Positions 1-10,565 of a DNA stretch of 64,000 nucleotides are shown here, one piece after another; within the stretch, counting starts at the first letter, position 1; every line of letters begins with the position of its first letter. The stretch is from the IMG/VR virus record IMGVR_UViG_2579779073_000002, one strand, 5' to 3'. Origin of the DNA: an uncultured virus (IMG/VR IMGVR_UViG_2579779073_000002). Its lineage: Duplodnaviria > Heunggongvirae > Uroviricota > Caudoviricetes. The translations under genes and the position numbers were made by a program. The notes under the pieces were generated by a model. That model saw nothing but the letters and a program-made list of their open reading frames with translations. It ran no database searches and was not told the origin of the DNA.

Positions 1-9
1 GCCGTTCAA

Positions 10-879
10 ATGATTTCACCACTGAGTAGCGTAACGGGCTTAGTGACTGCCTTGCAACAAACGGTCGGGGCAACTGAGCGAATCGACAACATTTTAGATA
101 GTCCGGAAGAAGATAAGCGGTTGTCAGGCGAAACGCTGTCAACAATCGATACGGTCGACTTTGATCACGTCGATTTTGGCTACGAAAGTGATAAACCGGT
201 GCTTAAGGACATTGATTTGACAATTCATCGCGGTGAGCGGATTGCCTTGATTGGTGAGAGTGGTAGCGGGAAAACGACCTTAGTTTCGCTCTTAGAGGCT
301 TACTATACGCCAACTCGTGGTGAGCTGGACGTGAATGGCGAGACAATGGCCAGTTATACGATTCCCTCGATTCGTAATCAGATCGGCTACGTGAGTCAAG
401 AAGTAGACTTGATGCCCGGGACGATTCGCGATAATCTCCTGTTAGGTTCGACGGAACCGGTCTCTGATGAACAATTGAGTGCGTTGTTGACACAAGTCGG
501 CTTAGCGGACTGGCTAGCTGAACTGTCAGCTGGTCTTGATACGGACGTCGGTGAACGGGGCTTGAATGTTTCTGGTGGACAGCGGCAACGTTTGGCCATC
601 GTCCGGGCACTCGTCCGCCACCCGTCGTTATTGATTTTAGACGAAGCGACGGCTAGTCTTGATAATCAGAACCAAGAACGGGTGACCCAGCTCTTGGCGA
701 CGTTACCAGCTGACCTGACGACTATTACGATTGTCCATCGGTTAAACCAGATCGAAGCTTATCCGCGAATTCTCTTCATGGAGGATGGTCAGATTACGGG
801 TGATGGCAATCATGAGTCCTTATTAGCAACCCATGAACGTTATCGTGACTTTTATCGGCTGCAGTATCAACACGGTTAA
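10..879 (+). CDS. ABC exporter, ATP-binding domain (C-terminal part of a fused permease/ATPase, 5' end outside window)
   Basis: Walker A GESGSGKT, signature VSGGQRQR, Walker B LLILDEATA; frame is open from the window edge. Confidence 0.9.
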   Translation: MISPLSSVTGLVTALQQTVGATERIDNILDSPEEDKRLSGETLSTIDTVDFDHVDFGYESDKPVLKDIDLTIHRGERIALIGESGSGKTTLVSLLEAYYTPTRGELDVNGETMASYTIPSIRNQIGYVSQEVDLMPGTIRDNLLLGSTEPVSDEQLSALLTQVGLADWLAELSAGLDTDVGERGLNVSGGQRQRLAIVRALVRHPSLLILDEATASLDNQNQERVTQLLATLPADLTTITIVHRLNQIEAYPRILFMEDGQITGDGNHESLLATHERYRDFYRLQYQHG

Positions 880-919
880 AAAGGCCTTAGTGAAATATTG
901 TTTGATTATTAAAATTAGT

Positions 920-958
920 AAGTGGTTATTGCTGAGTGTTGGCAATAGCCACTTTTTT
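920..958 (+). terminator. Rho-independent terminator after the ABC gene
   Basis: AAGTGGTTATTGC / GCAATAGCCACTT stem followed by a T run. Confidence 0.75.
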
Positions 959-1516
959 GATCCCAAAATATGTATTCAACTGGATAACGTGGGTTAAGGC
1001 ATGAAATAAAACCGACCGTAAAAAATATAAAAAGTATTAATAATTTTAATAATAAGTCGAAAAAAGCGATATTTATAATTATTTTTTAGGGAATAAATTT
1101 CCCGATGGTATGGTTCATAATTCGGAAAAAAAGAGGGGATGTCGCAGCAAGCAACTACGCTGAAATGCTGATATTATCAGGGGTTTAAACGCTTTCTGCT
1201 GGCATAGTTAACTGGTGATAAATATAAATAATATTGATATTGGACACAAATTTTGACCGTTAATGAAACGCGTAAGTTGTCCATAGTATACACATTTACT
1301 GATTGAATATGATACTGCCCTGTATTTATTCAAATATTAGTAATTTTATTGACGATTGTGGGGCGAATTAGTTAATATTTAAATCGTAAACGAGGTTACT
1401 TGTTTAACGTTCGCATTAGTAATCAATATTAGTTATTTAACAGACTAAATTAAATTAATGATTATTGAGCTGCTAATTTGTGAACAATTTGTAAATTTTC
1501 TAAGGAGGATATTAAC

Positions 1517-1648
1517 ATGAGTTTCTTCAGTGATTTACATCTCTTACCAGGGACCCACACATCATCACATACTAGTTATGTCAGCAACCAACCACTTGGT
1601 ACTTTCTATCAGTTTGTGTTGAACGTGATTGCCGCAATCAAAGGTTAA
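1517..1648 (+). CDS. Array peptide 1, 43 aa, type A: MSFFSDLHLLPGTHTSSHTSYVSNQPLGTFYQFVLNVIAAIKG
   Basis: Hand translation; AAGGAGG RBS; paralog of six downstream ORFs. Confidence 0.85.
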   Translation: MSFFSDLHLLPGTHTSSHTSYVSNQPLGTFYQFVLNVIAAIKG

Positions 1649-1819
1649 GCGTTGCTAGAGACGGGTGTTAGGGAATTCAATGATTAATTAGTTGAATTTT
1701 CTAACTGTTTAATCAAGTTTGTCGGAATTTAATTTGTTTTCCAAACTCTCAAGTCTTGCCATACAAGTGGCTAGGCTTGGGGATTTAACCATTAACTAAC
1801 TTAAAAGGAGGAGTTATTC

Positions 1820-1963
1820 ATGAGTTTCTTTACTGATTTGCACTTCTTACCGGGAACCCACACGTCATCATACACATCAAGTGTTTCAAATGACATCTTC
1901 GGTGGCTTCCACAGCTTCATCTTAAACTTGATTCCTGCAATCAAGAGTTTGTTCAGCAAATAA
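1820..1963 (+). CDS. Array peptide 2, 47 aa, type B: MSFFTDLHFLPGTHTSSYTSSVSNDIFGGFHSFILNLIPAIKSLFSK
   Basis: Hand translation; AAGGAGGAG RBS. Confidence 0.85.
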   Translation: MSFFTDLHFLPGTHTSSYTSSVSNDIFGGFHSFILNLIPAIKSLFSK

Positions 1964-1993
1964 TCATAGTTAATTTTATAGGAGGATTTCAAC

Positions 1994-2125
1994 ATGAGTT
2001 TCTTTAACGATTTCCACGTATTACCAGGTACGCATACGTCATCATACACATCAAGTGTTTCAAACGATATCTTCGGTGGTTTCCACAGCTTCGTCTTGAA
2101 CTTGATTGCTGCATTCAAAAAGTAA
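1994..2125 (+). CDS. Array peptide 3, 43 aa, type B: MSFFNDFHVLPGTHTSSYTSSVSNDIFGGFHSFVLNLIAAFKK
   Basis: Hand translation; AGGAGG RBS. Confidence 0.85.
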   Translation: MSFFNDFHVLPGTHTSSYTSSVSNDIFGGFHSFVLNLIAAFKK

Positions 2126-2157
2126 TTTAGTCAAACAATCATAGGAGGATTTACATT

Positions 2158-2301
2158 ATGAGTTTCTTTAACGATTTCCATGTATTACCAGGTACACATA
2201 CGTCATCATACACATCAAGTGTTTCAAACGACATTTTCGGTGGTTTCCATAGCTTTATCTTAAACTTGATTCCTGCAATCAAGAGCTTATTCAGCAAGTA
2301 A
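2158..2301 (+). CDS. Array peptide 4, 47 aa, type B: MSFFNDFHVLPGTHTSSYTSSVSNDIFGGFHSFILNLIPAIKSLFSK
   Basis: Hand translation; AGGAGG RBS. Confidence 0.85.
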   Translation: MSFFNDFHVLPGTHTSSYTSSVSNDIFGGFHSFILNLIPAIKSLFSK

Positions 2302-2332
2302 TCAAAACTAATCTTTTAGGAGGATTTATATT

Positions 2333-2464
2333 ATGAGTTTCTTTAACGATTTTCACGTATTACCAGGTACGCATACGTCATCATACACATCAAGTGTTTC
2401 AAATGATATCTTTGGTGGCTTGCACAGCTTCATCTTGAACGTTATTAAAGCGATCAAGGGATAA
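2333..2464 (+). CDS. Array peptide 5, 43 aa, type B: MSFFNDFHVLPGTHTSSYTSSVSNDIFGGLHSFILNVIKAIKG
   Basis: Hand translation; AGGAGG RBS. Confidence 0.85.
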   Translation: MSFFNDFHVLPGTHTSSYTSSVSNDIFGGLHSFILNVIKAIKG

Positions 2465-2542
2465 TCTATTTCGATAAACTAATTAATTAATATATTAATT
2501 AATGTCTTGATATTATTTAGATAATGAGGGAGGATATACATT

Positions 2543-2674
2543 ATGAGTTTCTTTTCAGATTTACACTTTTTACCAGGTACGCATACTTCATCACACACCA
2601 GCTACGTTAGCAACCAACCACTTGGTACTTTCTACCAATTCGTATTGAACGTAATTGCTGCATTCAAAGGCTAA
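2543..2674 (+). CDS. Array peptide 6, 43 aa, type A: MSFFSDLHFLPGTHTSSHTSYVSNQPLGTFYQFVLNVIAAFKG
   Basis: Hand translation; GGGAGG RBS. Confidence 0.85.
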   Translation: MSFFSDLHFLPGTHTSSHTSYVSNQPLGTFYQFVLNVIAAFKG

Positions 2675-2703
2675 TTAATTAACAATTAAAGGGGATTAAT
2701 CTC

Positions 2704-2835
2704 ATGAGTTTTTTCAATGATTTTCATATTTTACCAGGTACATACACATCATCATATACATCAAGTGTTTCCAACGACATCTTTGGTGGATTACACAGTT
2801 TTATCTTAAACGTAATTGCCGCATTCAAGGGCTAA
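2704..2835 (+). CDS. Array peptide 7, 43 aa, type B: MSFFNDFHILPGTYTSSYTSSVSNDIFGGLHSFILNVIAAFKG
   Basis: Hand translation; AAGGGG RBS. Confidence 0.8.
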   Translation: MSFFNDFHILPGTYTSSYTSSVSNDIFGGLHSFILNVIAAFKG

Positions 2836-2988
2836 TTCGTTAAATATAACTGAAATGCCAACAAAATCGTTATGGTGTTATTAAGCACGACACGATAAGC
2901 ACGACTAAGATGATGGGCTGGCAAGCGATTTGTCGCCCATCATTTTACATAAATGCAGAAAATCGTGGGTGCTCGGGGAGGATTCCAT

Positions 2989-5724
2989 ATGTCAAAAGAT
3001 AATCAAAAAATGACCGGTGATTCGGTTTATCGGGTAAAGATGTATAAAGATGGCAAGCGTTGGGTTTATGCCGGCGCAACCACGTTAGCTTTGGCTGCAG
3101 GTTTAGTATTTGCCAACGTTAATGCTTCTGCTGATACTGCTGCTAGCTCAGACGCAACCACGGAACAAGTTTCTAGTGCTGCCAGCTCTGCTGCAACTAG
3201 TTCAACGGCGACTTCATCAGCTGCTACGGATGCCAGTTCTGCATCTTCAACTGCAACTTCAACGTCAAGTACGGCTAGCTCAACTGCTACTACTTCAAGT
3301 AGTGCTGCCAGCTCGACTGCTTCTTCAGCTGCTACGTCAACAACGAGTGCGGCTAGTTCTTCAGCTGCAACTGTCAGTGCGACTACACCAGCAAGCAGTG
3401 ATGCGACATCGACTTCAACGGCAACTGTTGCAGCAACGGCTGCTAAGGCATCAGTTGCAACACCAGCTTCTGCTGCAGCAACGGCAACCACAACTGCTAC
3501 GACCACAACTGCTACGACCACGGCTGCGACTACAGCCCCAACAGTAACGGCACCAGCTTCTGAAGCTGTTAATCAAACTGCTGCTGGCTCAGTTGACGCT
3601 GGAACATTGACGAGTGCTACTCAGTCGGGTGGTTCGGGCAACTTACAAGACCAAGCACAATACATTCAGGAAAATGTTGATGGCACGAACATCAAAGTTA
3701 CTGCCGGGCATACGTACGCAGTTGCCATCCGGTTAACCAAGAGCCAAGCGCTTGATTGGGCTAATGCTTCTGGTCAAGTTTCAATTGCGCCAAATGGTTC
3801 CAACAGTAATGGCACTTGGACTGCCGTTGAATACGCAACTGAATCCGGTAAGGAATACAGTTACGCAGCTGGTGCTTCAACTGCCACTGTGGACATCACG
3901 AAGCTAACTGATGCTGATAGTTATGTCACTGTTCTCTATACTTTCAAAGCTAACGACGACGCGACGACGGGTAGCCGGGCTGCATATTTGGAATTTACAG
4001 GGACTACCTCAGTTAATAAGTTATCAACTAATACTAACAACACTGATGCCAATCAGCAGATTGAGGCTTGGAGCTATGCAACCCAAGTAATGGATACTTC
4101 TGTTGCCGCTGGTACGGTCGTTGTCCATTACGTTGATGAAAACGGCAATAAGATTGCGGATGACACGACTGTTCAAGGCGATGTTGACAATACTTACACC
4201 GTTACACCTGCTACTTTCAGTAATTACGCGTTAGATACGACTAAGTCCAGTGCTTTGACTGGAACAGTTGCCGCTGACACTACTGATTCTGATGGTAATG
4301 TGACGGCTGCTGGTACTGAATTGACGTTAGTCTACTCACAAAATACCGAAGCTTCAAACTTGACTGTTAACTACGTTGATGCTGATGGCAATACGATCTT
4401 ACCTTCTAAGACTTATACAGAAGGTGCTGATGGTACTGCAGCTGAAGTTGGCGGTGCTTACAGTGTAAATGCCGCTTCGATTGACGGTTATACCTTAACG
4501 GGTGATGCAACCCAAACTGGGACTTTTGTTTCTGGTGGTAACACGGTTACCTTCACTTATACGAAGGATGCAGCCCCAGTTGAACAATCAACGGTTACGG
4601 TAAACTACGTTGATGCTGATGGTAACACGATCAAGGCCGCTACGACCCAAACTTTGGATAACGGCTCAACTTATACGGTTGAAACGCCAACGATCGATGG
4701 TTACACTTACAAGTCAGCTGATGCCGCTTTGACTGGTACGGTTGATGGTAATAAGACGATTACCTTAACTTACACCAAGGATTCAACGACACCAGTTGAA
4801 AATAAAGCTAACTTGACGATCAATTATGTTGACGCTGATGGTAACACCATCAAAGCATCCAGCGTAACTGAATATATCGTTGGTCAAGCTTACACGGTTG
4901 GTCAACCAGAAATTGCTGGTTACACTTATGACCATGCCACTGGTGATGCCATTGCCGGAACGATTGCCTACAACGGTAACACAGTTACCCTTGTTTACAC
5001 GAAGAACGGTGGCACTACTCCAACTGAACAAACTAAGACGATCACAGTTAACTATGTTGACGCAGATGGTAATACGATCAAGAGTGCGACGACCACAACT
5101 TACAAAGTTGGGGACACTTACACGGTCGCAACACCTTCAATCGATGGTTACACTTACAAGTCAGCTGATGGTGCTTTGAGTGGTACGGTGGCTGATGACG
5201 CGACGATCACCTTAACTTATGCTAAGAATGATAACGGCGGCTCAACGACTGCACCTACCACCGCACCTGGTACCGGTGACAATGGTAATAACGGTGGTGG
5301 CACGACGACAACCGCACCTACGACTGCACCTGGCACTGGTGACAACGTCAACGGTGGCGGTACTGGTACAACTACAACTGCTCCTGTTACGACGCCAAGT
5401 GACGATACTGTTGATAATGGTAATGGTTCATCAAACAACGGTTCATCAACGACGACTTCAACGGCACCAGCAACCACGGTTTCTGATGATGAAGTAACGC
5501 CAACGACGACGGCTACTACTAACAATGGGACTAGTGGGGTTGTTCCTGCATCAGCCTCATTGAAGCCAGTAGTTACGACTAAGACGACGACTTCAGACGC
5601 AAAGACGTTACCACAAACGGATGAAGACGAAAACGGGACTGCCTTGGCTGTCTTGGGTCTTTCAACCTTATTGATGGGTTCAGCGCTATACTTTGGCGTT
5701 TCTCGTCGGAAGCATGAAGCATAA
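2989..5724 (+). CDS. Sortase-anchored surface adhesin: KxYKxGKxW signal peptide, Ser/Thr/Ala-rich stalk, about five MucBP-like repeats, LPQTD anchor
   Basis: KMYKDGKRW; repeated TVNYVDADGNTI...IDGYTY units; LPQTD + hydrophobic helix + RRKH tail; GGAGG RBS before ATG 2989 (track start 2953). Confidence 0.9.
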   Translation: MSKDNQKMTGDSVYRVKMYKDGKRWVYAGATTLALAAGLVFANVNASADTAASSDATTEQVSSAASSAATSSTATSSAATDASSASSTATSTSSTASSTATTSSSAASSTASSAATSTTSAASSSAATVSATTPASSDATSTSTATVAATAAKASVATPASAAATATTTATTTTATTTAATTAPTVTAPASEAVNQTAAGSVDAGTLTSATQSGGSGNLQDQAQYIQENVDGTNIKVTAGHTYAVAIRLTKSQALDWANASGQVSIAPNGSNSNGTWTAVEYATESGKEYSYAAGASTATVDITKLTDADSYVTVLYTFKANDDATTGSRAAYLEFTGTTSVNKLSTNTNNTDANQQIEAWSYATQVMDTSVAAGTVVVHYVDENGNKIADDTTVQGDVDNTYTVTPATFSNYALDTTKSSALTGTVAADTTDSDGNVTAAGTELTLVYSQNTEASNLTVNYVDADGNTILPSKTYTEGADGTAAEVGGAYSVNAASIDGYTLTGDATQTGTFVSGGNTVTFTYTKDAAPVEQSTVTVNYVDADGNTIKAATTQTLDNGSTYTVETPTIDGYTYKSADAALTGTVDGNKTITLTYTKDSTTPVENKANLTINYVDADGNTIKASSVTEYIVGQAYTVGQPEIAGYTYDHATGDAIAGTIAYNGNTVTLVYTKNGGTTPTEQTKTITVNYVDADGNTIKSATTTTYKVGDTYTVATPSIDGYTYKSADGALSGTVADDATITLTYAKNDNGGSTTAPTTAPGTGDNGNNGGGTTTTAPTTAPGTGDNVNGGGTGTTTTAPVTTPSDDTVDNGNGSSNNGSSTTTSTAPATTVSDDEVTPTTTATTNNGTSGVVPASASLKPVVTTKTTTSDAKTLPQTDEDENGTALAVLGLSTLLMGSALYFGVSRRKHEA

Positions 5725-5823
5725 TAATTAGAATAGCTTGATTATTTGCTGAACGGATAGAAAGGTCAGCGATGACCTTTCTACTCTTTGAGCAAACAAT
5801 CAAGTTTATGGAGGAGTTGCATT

Positions 5824-7800
5824 ATGAAGATGTTCAATAAAAAGCGCAGAGATAAGAATGAGGATTACCGTAATCATTCTGAGCGTGCAACGGCGACTTC
5901 AACCGTTGCTGCTCAAAAGCCAAAACCAAAGGCGACTCAAAGTAGTACGACCCCCAATGTGCGGTCATCTGCTGGTGTCCGGCCAACTAGTAGCAGCGTG
6001 ACTGCTTCAACTAGTGCCCCAGTTAAGGGCCAAAACCGGGTCAACCAACGGCGTGCTACCCAAACAGCAGCCAAAAACAGTGTGGCCATTGAACGCGAAA
6101 TGGCTGACTTAAACAAGCAATACCAAACTTTACGTGGGGAGCTTAAGGTCCAATTAGTTCAGGATCGTAAGCACGAAAAGCAACAGTATGAAACTTTAGT
6201 TGCCGAACAGTTAAACTTAGAACAACAGTTAAAGGACGCTAAGGTTACTCTGTCTAAACAGGACAAAGTCGTTAACACGAACGATAGCGAACGGCAGGGA
6301 ATGGTCAAGACCATCAATGCTGCTCAAAAACGTTATGATGATGCTAAGAAAGCTCTTGCTAAGAGCGATCAAACCATCAAATCGTTGGAAAAGAAGATTA
6401 CGCAGTCTGAACAATCATTAGCTGATTTGAAGCAAAATGAAGCTGATATGCGTAAAGCAATTCAGGGCGAACAGGATCTTAAGAAGTTATTCGTGTTGAT
6501 GAAGCAACAGGAGAAGCAAGCACAGGATCTGTATCAAAAGAGTGACGCAATCAACAGTGAACTCGTGAAACTCCAGAAGCGTGAACAGACTGAAACCCGT
6601 GAACGTTCGCGGAAGGAACACGCGATTACGAGTGCGGAAAAAGACTTACATACCGCTCAAGATGCGTTAGTTGCTTATGATCGTAAGAAGAAGAGTGCTC
6701 AAGACGAACAAGAACGTTCACTCAACTTGATTAATCAGAAAATCAATCGATTACAACATGATTATGATCAAAATGCCACGATTGTTAAGGGGCTCCAACA
6801 AAAGATTGAAAGCATTGATGCCAAGTTAAAATCGGATTACGGGACGACTCACTTAGTATCGCCCGTCGAATTTGACCAGTCTGCAAAGTACTTCTTGTTC
6901 AGCACCGATCTGATTCAATCATTGTCTGGTGATGAAAAGGCTTCGATGGAAATGATCATGGGCTTATTGAAGAGTGAAGTTAAGGATAAAGCTAATGTTA
7001 TTACGGTTAACTATAATGACAGCTTGCCAGAAATTTGGAACAGTTACCAATCAGCTGGCTTAGTTGATAAACGAACTGGCTTGTACAACATGTACTACAC
7101 GATTCAGGCAAAGGTACCGGGTGCCGTTGCGAAGACTAAACCAGAATTACCTGATAATCCTGCATGGCAATATAAGCGCAATGCTGATAAGCAGATTGTG
7201 TCAATTGCCGATGATGGCGGTAACCCAATTATGACGTTGAAGTACCGTAAGAATGGTGCCATTTGGTACATGACTTACTTCAATGGGTCATTAGCAACTC
7301 GTCGGGATGTGTACGATGCTGCCGGGTTCTTGTCAGTCACTCAGTACCTTGACCGGACGAATAACTCACAAGTGACACTAGAAAACTTCTATCGTCCAGA
7401 CCACTCTTTAGCAATGGTCAAGCAATATGGTAGTAACCACGAATTATCAATTCAATTAGTGAATAAGGAAGAAGCCATCACGAATGTCTTCCATTCTGAA
7501 GCACAATTATTGAACTGGTGGTTGGCATCAGTCTTACAACAACAAAACAGTGTGTTGGTTATGGGAGTTAACGCCCCATTGTTCGACCAATGCTTACAAG
7601 CAACGAATGATAATTTCCATCTCTTACCAATCGTCTCTGCTGATGATTTGGATAATCAACACGTCCAAGATATTATCAACGGAAAGAGTAAGTTGTCGAG
7701 CTTAGTTGTAACGGATCGTGATGTTCAGACTGCGATTGAGAAACAAATGACACGTGATCTTGAAATCACCGTTATGCCAGCTGCAGAAGTCCGTGCGTAA
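5824..7800 (+). CDS. Long coiled-coil protein with a C-terminal domain resembling the beta-rich N-terminal region of GtfA/TagE/Asp1-type glycosyltransferases
   Basis: K/E/Q heptad region in the first half; RRDVYDAAGFLSVTQYLD...ENFYRPD motif; GGAGGAG RBS before ATG 5824. Confidence 0.55.
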   Translation: MKMFNKKRRDKNEDYRNHSERATATSTVAAQKPKPKATQSSTTPNVRSSAGVRPTSSSVTASTSAPVKGQNRVNQRRATQTAAKNSVAIEREMADLNKQYQTLRGELKVQLVQDRKHEKQQYETLVAEQLNLEQQLKDAKVTLSKQDKVVNTNDSERQGMVKTINAAQKRYDDAKKALAKSDQTIKSLEKKITQSEQSLADLKQNEADMRKAIQGEQDLKKLFVLMKQQEKQAQDLYQKSDAINSELVKLQKREQTETRERSRKEHAITSAEKDLHTAQDALVAYDRKKKSAQDEQERSLNLINQKINRLQHDYDQNATIVKGLQQKIESIDAKLKSDYGTTHLVSPVEFDQSAKYFLFSTDLIQSLSGDEKASMEMIMGLLKSEVKDKANVITVNYNDSLPEIWNSYQSAGLVDKRTGLYNMYYTIQAKVPGAVAKTKPELPDNPAWQYKRNADKQIVSIADDGGNPIMTLKYRKNGAIWYMTYFNGSLATRRDVYDAAGFLSVTQYLDRTNNSQVTLENFYRPDHSLAMVKQYGSNHELSIQLVNKEEAITNVFHSEAQLLNWWLASVLQQQNSVLVMGVNAPLFDQCLQATNDNFHLLPIVSADDLDNQHVQDIINGKSKLSSLVVTDRDVQTAIEKQMTRDLEITVMPAAEVRA

Positions 7801-7854: not shown

Positions 7855-8340
7855 ATGATGAAGACTAATACTAAGAAGGCCAAGTACGACGATGCGGAAT
7901 TGTTCGAAAAAGTCTTAGTGGGCATGTCATGGCTTGAAAGCCATCTTCGCGAGATTATTCAAACGATGGTGACTGATGCGGACGTGTCGTTCGAACAGTT
8001 CTTGATTCTCTACTATCTTGACCATAGCACTGATCACCGGATTACGGTGAAAGAGCTAGCCGCTGACCGCCACGTCTCTTCTTCAGCGATTTCAAGGAAA
8101 CTGACCTACTTGATCAACAATGACTTGATTGTGTTGAACATCGATCCTTATGATCGTCGGTACCGTTATCTAACGTTGACCGCCAAAGGTGAGAAGTTAG
8201 CACGGGTCATTGAAAAAGTTAACGAAGAACGCCTTGGCAAGTTCCTCGACGAATTTGGCCGGATTCGAACCTCTGAATTAACTGATGAGCTTCGGATGGT
8301 CAGCAAAGTTTTAGTGGATACCAAGGAAATTAAAGGCTAG
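7855..8340 (+). CDS. MarR-family transcriptional regulator
   Basis: EQFLIL...TVKELA...SSAISRKL...DRRYRYLTLTAKG winged-helix pattern. Confidence 0.85.
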   Translation: MMKTNTKKAKYDDAELFEKVLVGMSWLESHLREIIQTMVTDADVSFEQFLILYYLDHSTDHRITVKELAADRHVSSSAISRKLTYLINNDLIVLNIDPYDRRYRYLTLTAKGEKLARVIEKVNEERLGKFLDEFGRIRTSELTDELRMVSKVLVDTKEIKG

Positions 8341-9407: not shown

Positions 9408-10565
9408 TTAAAAATTAAGGTAATTGGCCAACTTTTCGGTGGCTTCATTTTTTTGCTTGGCAGTAACTGCGGTGTAAATATCTAAAGTTGTGCGATAGCT
9501 TGAATGTCCTAACTGGTCTTGTACTGACTTGATGGAAGCATGGGCTTCAAATGCAAGTGTCGCATAAGTGTGGCGGAATGCGTGAACCGTGACATGCTTC
9601 AAGTCATATTTAGTTAGAGTATGTTCAAGCCATTTACGTGGCTTAGATGGTTGAAACATTTCGTTATTTTCATTGGCAAACACATAGTGGTTACCCTGAT
9701 TAATATTGAATCCGAAACGTAGTAGCCATTCTTTTTGATCAGCTTGCCAGCGTTGCAATATTTTGACTGTATTGGGATCTAAATACACCGTCCGGTTGCT
9801 CCGCGCTGTCTTAGGTGCTTGTACCAGCAGACGGGCACCATCACCACGGGATTGTGTTTTATTAACCCGTATAGTGTGATTGCTAAAATCAATGTCAGAC
9901 CATTCTAAGCAAAGCATTTCAGATTTTCTCATACCGGTAAAAGCCGCTAAACGGAAGAACACACTGGCTTGCGGTGTATTGTCATCATCATTCAGACACT
10001 CAAAGAAGTGTTGTAATTCAGACTTATCAAAATAATTCTCTAAATTTTTGCGTGAACGATCGTTTTTATTCACTGGTACAATAACACGCTTAGCCGGATT
10101 TTCACTGATTAAGTCAATGTTGATGGCATAATCAAGCACCTTTGCAACGTAGTTCATTAGCGTGTGGTACTTGGCCAAGCCAGCATTAAACCACTGGTTA
10201 ATGGCTTTTTGACAATCCTTAATGGATATTTTAGCAATCCGGTAATCATTAAATATCGGTAAAATATGAAGCCGGAACAGCCGTTGAGTCGTTACCCAAG
10301 TGCTTTCCTTAACCGTTTGTTTATATTGCGTGAACCATAGTTGGTAAATATCCTGAAAAATTGTATTATCGTTTTTAGTTGGTAGCCCATGATTGTAAAT
10401 ATCAAGTTCAAGTCTTGATAATACAATCTGGGCTTCTTTTTTTGTCTTGAATCCACGGCGTCGGGTATTTTTCTTTTTCCCCGTTAGTGGATCAACACCT
10501 AAATAAACTTGAAACTGATAACGGGTATTCCCGTCCTTGTCCTGATACTTCTTGATTGTTGCCAT
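9408..10565 (-). CDS. int: Tyrosine recombinase (satellite integrase)
   Basis: TGMRKSE, HAFRHTYAT, QLGHSS...TLDIY catalytic motifs; N-terminal arm-binding domain. Confidence 0.95.
   Translation of the reverse strand: MATIKKYQDKDGNTRYQFQVYLGVDPLTGKKKNTRRRGFKTKKEAQIVLSRLELDIYNHGLPTKNDNTIFQDIYQLWFTQYKQTVKESTWVTTQRLFRLHILPIFNDYRIAKISIKDCQKAINQWFNAGLAKYHTLMNYVAKVLDYAINIDLISENPAKRVIVPVNKNDRSRKNLENYFDKSELQHFFECLNDDDNTPQASVFFRLAAFTGMRKSEMLCLEWSDIDFSNHTIRVNKTQSRGDGARLLVQAPKTARSNRTVYLDPNTVKILQRWQADQKEWLLRFGFNINQGNHYVFANENNEMFQPSKPRKWLEHTLTKYDLKHVTVHAFRHTYATLAFEAHASIKSVQDQLGHSSYRTTLDIYTAVTAKQKNEATEKLANYLNF

Follow-up and report, generated by a model that had tools for sequence, protein, structure and literature searches.

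Phenol-soluble modulins of the beta group (PSM-beta) are peptides of about 44 amino acids that are encoded by tandem chromosomal genes, have no signal peptide, form an amphipathic helix in their C-terminal part, are close to neutral in charge and depend on an ATP-binding cassette (ABC) exporter. Pmt is a multi-subunit exporter, the peptide LsbB is 30 amino acids long, and the multi-peptide leaderless bacteriocins have an ABC transporter beside their structural genes. Work on Pmt/PmtR assigns the export of PSMs to Pmt (PMC7872022). In Lactococcus, the multidrug-resistance-type ABC protein LmrB both exports leaderless LsbB and confers immunity against it (PMC6131525, citing Gajic 2003), and aureocin A70, garvicin KS and the cereucins are specified by tandem paralogous leaderless genes for 3-4 peptides of 26-34 amino acids with charges of +2 to +5 and a pI of about 10-11 (PMC6131525). 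Here we describe a further locus, an array of seven small peptide genes adjoining an ABC exporter gene, in a 64,000-nucleotide stretch of DNA recorded as an uncultured virus (IMG/VR IMGVR_UViG_2579779073_000002; the whole stretch is called the window). The DNA is that of plantarum-group Lactiplantibacillus.

The array peptides resemble the PSM-beta/Pmt system in size, tandem genes, absence of a signal peptide, C-terminal helix and near-neutral charge; an ABC exporter is linked here too, and the peptides would depend on it. They differ from the PSMs in giving no Pfam match at E <= 10 and in coming from a different genus, and their exporter, unlike Pmt, is a fused BmrA-like half-transporter. We know of no PSM counterpart to their HxLPG motif, Ser/Thr-rich middle or three histidines. 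With LsbB/LmrB the locus shares a leaderless peptide and an exporter of the LmrA/BmrA type without a peptidase domain, but where LsbB is single and basic, the arrays hold 2-10 near-neutral copies of 40-47 amino acids, without sequence similarity to LsbB and in a syntenic chromosomal position across species. Several tandem paralogous leaderless genes are also found in the aureocin A70, garvicin KS and cereucin systems; in contrast to these, the present array encodes seven peptides of 43-47 amino acids with a charge of about 0 at pH 7, and no immunity gene was seen. Of the class IId characters, the locus has peptides without a leader, probably released unprocessed, and an adjoining dedicated ABC transporter, but not the strong cationic charge. 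In its mode it would work like PSM/Pmt and LsbB/LmrB, but its peptides belong to neither family, as judged by sequence, charge and exporter type. An earlier, sequence-only reading of the window had offered either a PSM-like family or peptides processed at a double glycine; unprocessed PSM-like export is the better of the two, the resemblance to PSMs being functional only.

The peptide genes were located in an open reading frame (ORF) listing of the window with ATG starts and a minimum of 25 amino acids, repeated at a minimum of 100 amino acids.

1517-1648, plus strand: peptide gene copy 1, subtype A, 43 amino acids
1820-1963, plus strand: peptide gene copy 2, subtype B, 47 amino acids
1994-2125, plus strand: peptide gene copy 3, subtype B, 43 amino acids
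2158-2301, plus strand: peptide gene copy 4, subtype B, 47 amino acids, identical to AMP9/AMP10 of L. plantarum K9
2333-2464, plus strand: peptide gene copy 5, subtype B, 43 amino acids
2543-2674, plus strand: peptide gene copy 6, subtype A, 43 amino acids
2704-2835, plus strand: peptide gene copy 7, subtype B, 43 amino acids, with Tyr at the near-invariant His14 and a weaker ribosome-binding site

The listing and the alignments confirm the seven tandem paralogous genes of 43-47 codons at 1517-2835 and their division into two subtypes, A with QPLGTFYQF in copies 1 and 6 and B with DIFGG(F/L)HSF in the remaining copies 2-5 and 7, both proposed in the sequence-only reading. The protein alignment has 25 invariant columns, a mean column identity of 81 % and no internal gaps, with the consensus MSFFNDFHxLPGTHTSSYTSSVSNDIFGGFHSFILNVIAAIKG. 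A separate ribosome-binding site for each copy was also correctly anticipated for six of the seven, which carry GGAGG 6-9 nt upstream of the ATG in the DNA alignment; copy 7 has the weaker AAGGGGA. The description of the C-terminus as ending in lysine needs amending, as K42 is invariant in all seven copies but four of them finish with K-G. At the 100-amino-acid threshold the sole ORF in the array region is an antisense frame of 105 amino acids (1801-2118, minus strand) across copies 2-3, so the peptide genes are indeed invisible to an ordinary ORF track, as had been noted. This antisense frame, which recurs in the nearest genome, is taken to be a by-product of the repeats.

The differences between copies are mostly synonymous, and the selection on the peptide that had been suspected from them is evident. 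Copies 1 and 6 differ in 2 of 43 residues, with a nonsynonymous divergence (dN) of 0.044 against a synonymous divergence (dS) of 2.15; the combination of few residue changes and high dS indicates that the paralogues are old and each is maintained, rather than recently homogenised. Within the window, pairs of subtype B genes give dN/dS ratios of 0.05-0.22. Between species, the pooled nonsynonymous-to-synonymous ratio (pN/pS) over 12 loci is 0.19 for subtype A (20 genes) and 0.13 for subtype B (80 genes), and the start codon, stop codon and ribosome-binding site are kept over these 100 genes. Overall, dN/dS in the sense frame is 0.02-0.2, well away from 1, with synonymous sites saturated. The seven ORFs are real peptide genes under purifying selection.

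The family was found in 14 of 23 Lactiplantibacillus species genomes in a genus scan. Each carrier has one tandem array of 5-10 matches, sometimes split by contig ends, and every one of the 12 Lactiplantibacillus loci analysed keeps both subtypes (A, 20 genes; B, 80 genes). In the nearest genome (G001, locus L011) the array has nine copies as against seven in the window, which is without two B43 copies; the copy-number difference maps to window 1994-2301 versus L011 10915-11550, and the counterpart of window copy 7 there has His, not Tyr, at position 14. Two species have a possible decayed extra copy upstream, rejected because the locus checked (L046) holds no intact ORF. A search of 5.8 billion proteins returned 42 clusters, every named one of them a 'hypothetical protein' of Lactiplantibacillus species. 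A profile search of 1.84 billion representatives gave four matches. Two belong to the family, and the remaining two, long proteins with internal repeats, were taken as unrelated.

Weak matches in two other genera appeared in a sample of 301 Lactobacillaceae genomes. The 40-amino-acid peptides of Convivina and Eupransor are true homologues. They read MFSLDFWHILPGSSNTTH.SNSNN.PLANV.AFILRLFGK, stand in tandem, each with its own GGAGG, and number two and two in two Convivina genomes (Convivina intestini and C. praedatoris) and eight in Eupransor demetentiae; Lactobacillaceae bacterium L1_55_11 has three tandem copies, and three further variants occur in metagenome data. The Lactiplantibacillus and Convivina-type peptides are 25-28 % identical in an ungapped alignment, and M1, H8, L10, P11, G12, N24, F33 and L35 are invariant in all 27 sequences of both forms. 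The eight Eupransor copies (L041 4032-6259, minus strand), among which the variants NVFAF and NVGAF recur, lie 140-230 nt apart, compared with 25-50 nt in Lactiplantibacillus, and with such wide spacing each copy may have its own promoter.

An order-level scan of 401 genomes (62 of them Lactobacillaceae) gave no real match outside Lactiplantibacillus; its three weak matches were discarded, being inside or antisense to ordinary genes. Two weak family-level matches (G200 and G215) fall in frames of 318 and 166 amino acids. Outside Bacillota the HxLPG pattern matched two metagenome-assembled genomes, one proteobacterial (L088, 48 % over 25 amino acids) and one from Lentisphaeria (L073, 9 residues); both matches are probably due to chance.

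The exporter gene lies at the very start of the window, which holds its 3' part.

1-879, plus strand: 3' part of the array-linked ABC exporter gene, encoding the ATPase domain (Pfam ABC_tran, E 9.7e-36)

In the nearest genome the full gene (L011 8038-9801) encodes 587 amino acids in which an ABC_membrane domain (37-303) and an ABC_tran domain (363-513) are fused. Only 36 residues precede the membrane domain, and a domain search of the 587-residue protein found no C39 peptidase domain. Among solved structures BmrA is the closest (E 2e-136). The order pgi, MacB-like ABC, glycosyltransferase (GT4), exporter, array, MucBP adhesin, P670 and MarR, with the exporter directly upstream of the array, is shared by the nearest genome and nine of ten further species loci; a contig end interrupts the remaining one. 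Conversely, no orthologue of the exporter was found in any of the nine array-less Lactiplantibacillus genomes, where the best match has 28-37 % identity.

The second lineage shows the same pairing in another setting. In the two Convivina genomes, Eupransor and L1_55_11 the arrays, of 2, 2, 8 and 3 copies, are followed immediately downstream by the gene for an exporter of 546-547 amino acids, whereas in Lactiplantibacillus the exporter lies upstream. The gene order there is phosphoketolase, HAD hydrolase, array, exporter and prs, surroundings wholly unlike those in Lactiplantibacillus, and no glycosyltransferase, adhesin or protease gene was found near these arrays. Searched against the nearest Lactiplantibacillus genome, the Convivina-type exporter matches the exporter beside the array best (E 1.4e-78; next best 1.4e-71). 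Phylogenetic trees were computed both carefully (32 rows, LG+G4) and quickly (35 rows, PMSF), and in both the 10 Lactiplantibacillus and 4 Convivina-type array-linked exporters form one clade, with support of 98/98 and 99, respectively. Its sister is a generic BmrA-like clade (100/100) with rows from both Convivina genomes, G001 and eight array-less Lactiplantibacillus. A single exporter clade in two distant lineages implies that array and exporter travelled together, and this co-inheritance is our chief reason to propose that the peptides pass through the exporter. The link to an ABC exporter, already part of the sequence-only reading, is thus borne out in both lineages.

None of the seven peptides has a signal peptide, in agreement with the PSM-like option of the sequence-only reading. 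Searches of Pfam and NCBIfam, including the models for PSMs, delta-lysin, bacteriocins and double-glycine leaders, gave no match at E <= 10 for any of the seven, and in these databases the family is therefore not identical with a characterised one. The ESM Atlas gave no usable match. The AlphaFold2 prediction, made with 27 sequences, has a mean predicted local distance difference test score (pLDDT) of 67, with a helix spanning residues 18-46 and pLDDT values of 80-87 over the last 17 residues; the N-terminal half is of low confidence and is predicted to be disordered. The C-terminal 18-mers have hydrophobic moments of 0.39-0.52, values attained by 0.3-6 % of shuffled sequences. Accordingly the C-terminal half is predicted to be an amphipathic helix and not a transmembrane segment.

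The peptides contain no Trp, 12-15 Ser/Thr/Asn and 2-3 His each, and the Ser/Thr-rich middle reads THTSSYTSSVSN; Cys was absent from the six peptides counted. For five of the six peptides computed the net charge is about -0.7 at pH 7 and +2.6 to +3.0 at pH 4; copy 7, with Tyr at the position of His14, has -1.8 and +1.0, respectively. The shift to about +3 at pH 4 is due to the three histidines, the net charge being 0 when His is left out of the calculation. Across genera the best-conserved part is the N-terminal HxLPG motif (27 sequences).

Two assignments suggested by these features were rejected. Sortase substrates have an N-terminal Sec signal peptide and a conserved LPxT motif immediately ahead of the hydrophobic tail. 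The LPxT-like motif at residues 10-13 is not a sortase sorting signal; it has no preceding signal peptide, reads LPGS in the Convivina type and is separated by some 15 polar residues from the hydrophobic part. Glycocins have Cys residues in nested disulfides and a cognate glycosyltransferase. The array peptides counted are free of Cys, and the nearby enzyme is a group 1 glycosyltransferase match resembling SdgA/GtfA.

A literature search by peptide strings, which did not cover supplementary files, matched a single paper, and a keyword search returned nothing relevant. In that paper AMP9 and AMP10 of L. plantarum K9, identical to window copy 4, are separated by three repetitive genes and were picked by CAMPR4 as predicted antimicrobial, 'Ponericin-W-like' at 38/57 (Bang et al. 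2026, PMC13467433). For the K9 copy-4 sequence it reports RNA at 42 in exponential phase and at 120 in stationary phase, and at 0 under the control pH of 3.5 versus about 156-164 at pH 2.5-3.0 (PMC13467433); identical copies may be under-counted by read mappers. The accessible text treats AMP9 and AMP10 as two isolated candidates and makes no mention of a family, its subtypes, the selection on it, a linked exporter or homologues from other genera (PMC13467433). In public data, contigs of eight runs labelled RNA hold the array stretch, although contigs cannot show transcription, and the reads mapped to the array numbered 0 in two raw runs and 9 in a third.

The reading that we prefer, with a probability of roughly 0.5, is that the array encodes unprocessed, leaderless full-length peptides which are expelled by the dedicated BmrA-like exporter and act outside the cell at acid pH. 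A conserved promoter would drive the array, a 5'-terminal stem-loop may make the mRNA more stable, and each cistron would be translated from its own ribosome-binding site. The C-terminal amphipathic helix would bring the peptide into the inner leaflet of the membrane, where the homodimeric exporter encoded next door could expel it, which would probably also protect the producer. Outside, at the low pH made by the producer, protonation of the three histidines would take a near-neutral peptide to about +3, and the cationic form may be membrane-active, with an antimicrobial and/or surfactant effect. Given that both subtypes are kept in every Lactiplantibacillus locus examined, A and B probably act together or do different jobs. 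We put forward more tentatively a wider proposal, namely that the peptides might be the natural cargo of a specialised BmrA/LmrA-type half-transporter clade and a lactic-acid-bacterial counterpart of the PSMs, made in bulk without a leader and armed by a histidine switch at producer-made acid pH, with A and B an obligate pair and HxLPG the exporter tag.

Several points weigh against the preferred reading. The K9 study provides the only published test of activity; of the peptide it used a synthetic C-terminal 21-mer (2.5 mg/mL), and neither this nor the clones are named among the actives in the accessible text (PMC13467433). Known leaderless bacteriocins carry +2 to +7 (PMC6131525), whereas the array peptides are at about 0. 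The conserved HxLPG is left unexplained and could be a leader or a recognition tag. Within the genus the whole island (GT4, exporter, array, adhesin and P670) is present or absent as a unit; as the genomes are related and the island is inherited together, co-occurrence within the genus amounts to about one evolutionary event. The reverse exporter search agrees only for Eupransor, the best match of the 587-residue exporter (ABC587) in both Convivina genomes being a generic paralogue, and a long branch leads to the Convivina exporters (careful tree, 1.48; quick tree, 3.23).

The locus is of interest as a conserved, multi-copy and strongly selected family of the well-studied food and probiotic species L. 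plantarum that has no family name or known function, its sole printed appearance being as two 'predicted AMPs'. Its pairing with one BmrA/LmrA-like clade offers a testable natural substrate for a class of transporter known mostly from drug efflux. Should the peptides be secreted and acid-switched, they would bear on how plantarum-group strains compete, behave at surfaces and interact with hosts, both during fermentation and in the gut; the same would hold for the insect-associated Convivina and Eupransor.

The N-terminal conservation noted above, with H8, L10, P11 and G12 fixed in both lineages, would also suit precursors that are exported by means of their N-terminal part (M..F.H.LPG, or all residues as far as GG) and lose it to a protease encoded elsewhere, for instance a membrane protease or a C39-type transporter from the plantaricin locus, giving a mature C-terminal bacteriocin or signal of about 18-22 residues. 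GG does stand at positions 28-29 in five of the seven window copies, and the nearest genome has a 731-amino-acid open frame that is a weaker match to the Convivina array-linked exporter. Typical double-glycine precursors combine a leader of 15-30 residues, cut at a conserved GG, GA or GS, with a cognate ABC transporter that carries an N-terminal C39 peptidase domain. Here, however, GG is replaced by GT in subtype A and by AN in the Convivina-type homologues, the linked exporter has its short N-terminus and no C39 domain, no protease gene is present in any locus examined, double-glycine leader models do not match and purifying selection spans the full length of the peptide. Double-glycine processing, one of the two routes first envisaged, is not supported, given these substitutions and the exporter, and we regard leader precursors as unlikely. 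It is similarly improbable, in our estimate, that the peptides stay inside the cell as small cytoplasmic or membrane-associated proteins such as acid-stress factors or modulators of the neighbouring ABC transporter. Small proteins that regulate transporters exist, and the peptides carry no export signal. The reported induction of the RNA at pH 2.5-3.0 (PMC13467433) would suit an acid-stress role. Yet 2-10 copies with strong ribosome-binding sites suggest production in bulk and not a regulatory role, both conserved subtypes have been retained, and the co-inheritance is specifically with an exporter clade.

The neighbouring GT4 gene raises the question of whether THTSSYTSSVSN is O-glycosylated before export. 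No modification enzyme had been visible in the sequence-only reading, which holds inside the window, but in the nearest genome the GT4 gene (L011 6489-8066) lies just upstream of it, beginning 17 nt after the MacB-like ABC gene and overlapping the first ATG of the exporter's longest frame (8038); this overlap keeps the glycopeptide idea alive. The best NCBIfam matches of GT4, all below the cut-offs, are the adhesin O-glycosyltransferases SdgA/SdgB and GtfA. All 14 array-bearing genomes of the genus have an orthologue with 61 % identity or more, as against at most 37 % in the nine others, and the Ser/Thr/Asn-rich middle is conserved in both lineages. Against this, the Convivina, Eupransor and L1_55_11 loci are without a glycosyltransferase, the array is preceded by a promoter of its own and the exporter gene is closed by a terminator, and a more obvious client of GT4 is the adjacent MucBP adhesin with its long Ala/Ser/Thr-rich region, beyond which P670 shares a motif with the N-terminal domain of GT4. 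Glycosylated peptides thus seem a rather poor prospect. That the genes are type I toxins or non-coding repeats with incidental reading frames, as their tandem arrangement, shortness, hydrophobic ends and long antisense frames might suggest, is close to refuted by the low sense-frame dN/dS at saturated dS, by the conservation of start, stop and ribosome-binding site over 100 genes, by the lack of an Rfam match and by a C-terminus that is amphipathic and not transmembrane.

The array appears to form its own transcription unit, bounded by the following elements.

920-954, plus strand: terminator-like hairpin at the end of the exporter unit, a 16-pair stem followed by TTTTGATCCC
1296-1378, plus strand: conserved upstream element with a sigma-70-type promoter found by a promoter scan (-35 TTGACG at 1349-1354, -10 TAATAT at 1373-1378)
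1386-1408, plus strand: 9-4-9 palindrome GTAAACGAGGTTACTTGTTTAAC, just 3' of the predicted transcript start
1667-1705 and 1748-1781, plus strand: two strong hairpins after copy 1 (minimum free energy -44.4 kcal/mol, z -4.4, equalled by none of 200 shuffles)
2906-2947, plus strand: terminator-like hairpin closing the array ahead of the MucBP adhesin gene (18-pair stem, UUUU end, z -3.8)

A block of about 120 nt upstream of copy 1 is kept in all 12 loci aligned. The palindrome that follows the promoter is likewise conserved over the 12 loci, with three unpaired changes in one species (L048), occurs once in the nearest genome when up to 3 mismatches are allowed and folds as the first hairpin of the 5' untranslated region; it may be an mRNA-stabilising stem-loop or an operator. 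The spacer after copy 1 is 171 nt long, and its hairpins may act as a partial terminator or processing site. The B copies are 30-32 nt apart, and copy 6 is preceded by an AT-rich spacer of 78 nt with a promoter-like site at 2487-2516. Rfam gave no match in 850-3050.

Three further genes of the island follow the array in the window.

2953-5724: MucBP surface protein bearing a KxYKxGKxW signal, a long stretch rich in Ala, Ser and Thr, and an LPQTDE anchor
5788-7800: P670, a protein of 670 amino acids with no Pfam match
7855-8340: MarR regulator

The motif shared between P670 and the N-terminal part of GT4 lies at P670 residues 490-538 (E 4e-7). P670 was found in none of the five array-less genomes tested, save for matches of 22-23 % in one, and the MacB-like homologue of array-less species stands in a different gene context. 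The MucBP adhesin, P670, MarR and GT4 can be seen as an adhesin glycosylation module around the array. From 9408 to about 64000 the window is prophage-like, with an integrase gene (9408-10565, minus strand) and genes for a helix-turn-helix repressor, a primase-polymerase and VapE-like proteins; of the words sampled from the window, 73 % also occur in the nearest virus record, and eight tRNA genes lie between 21745 and 40083.

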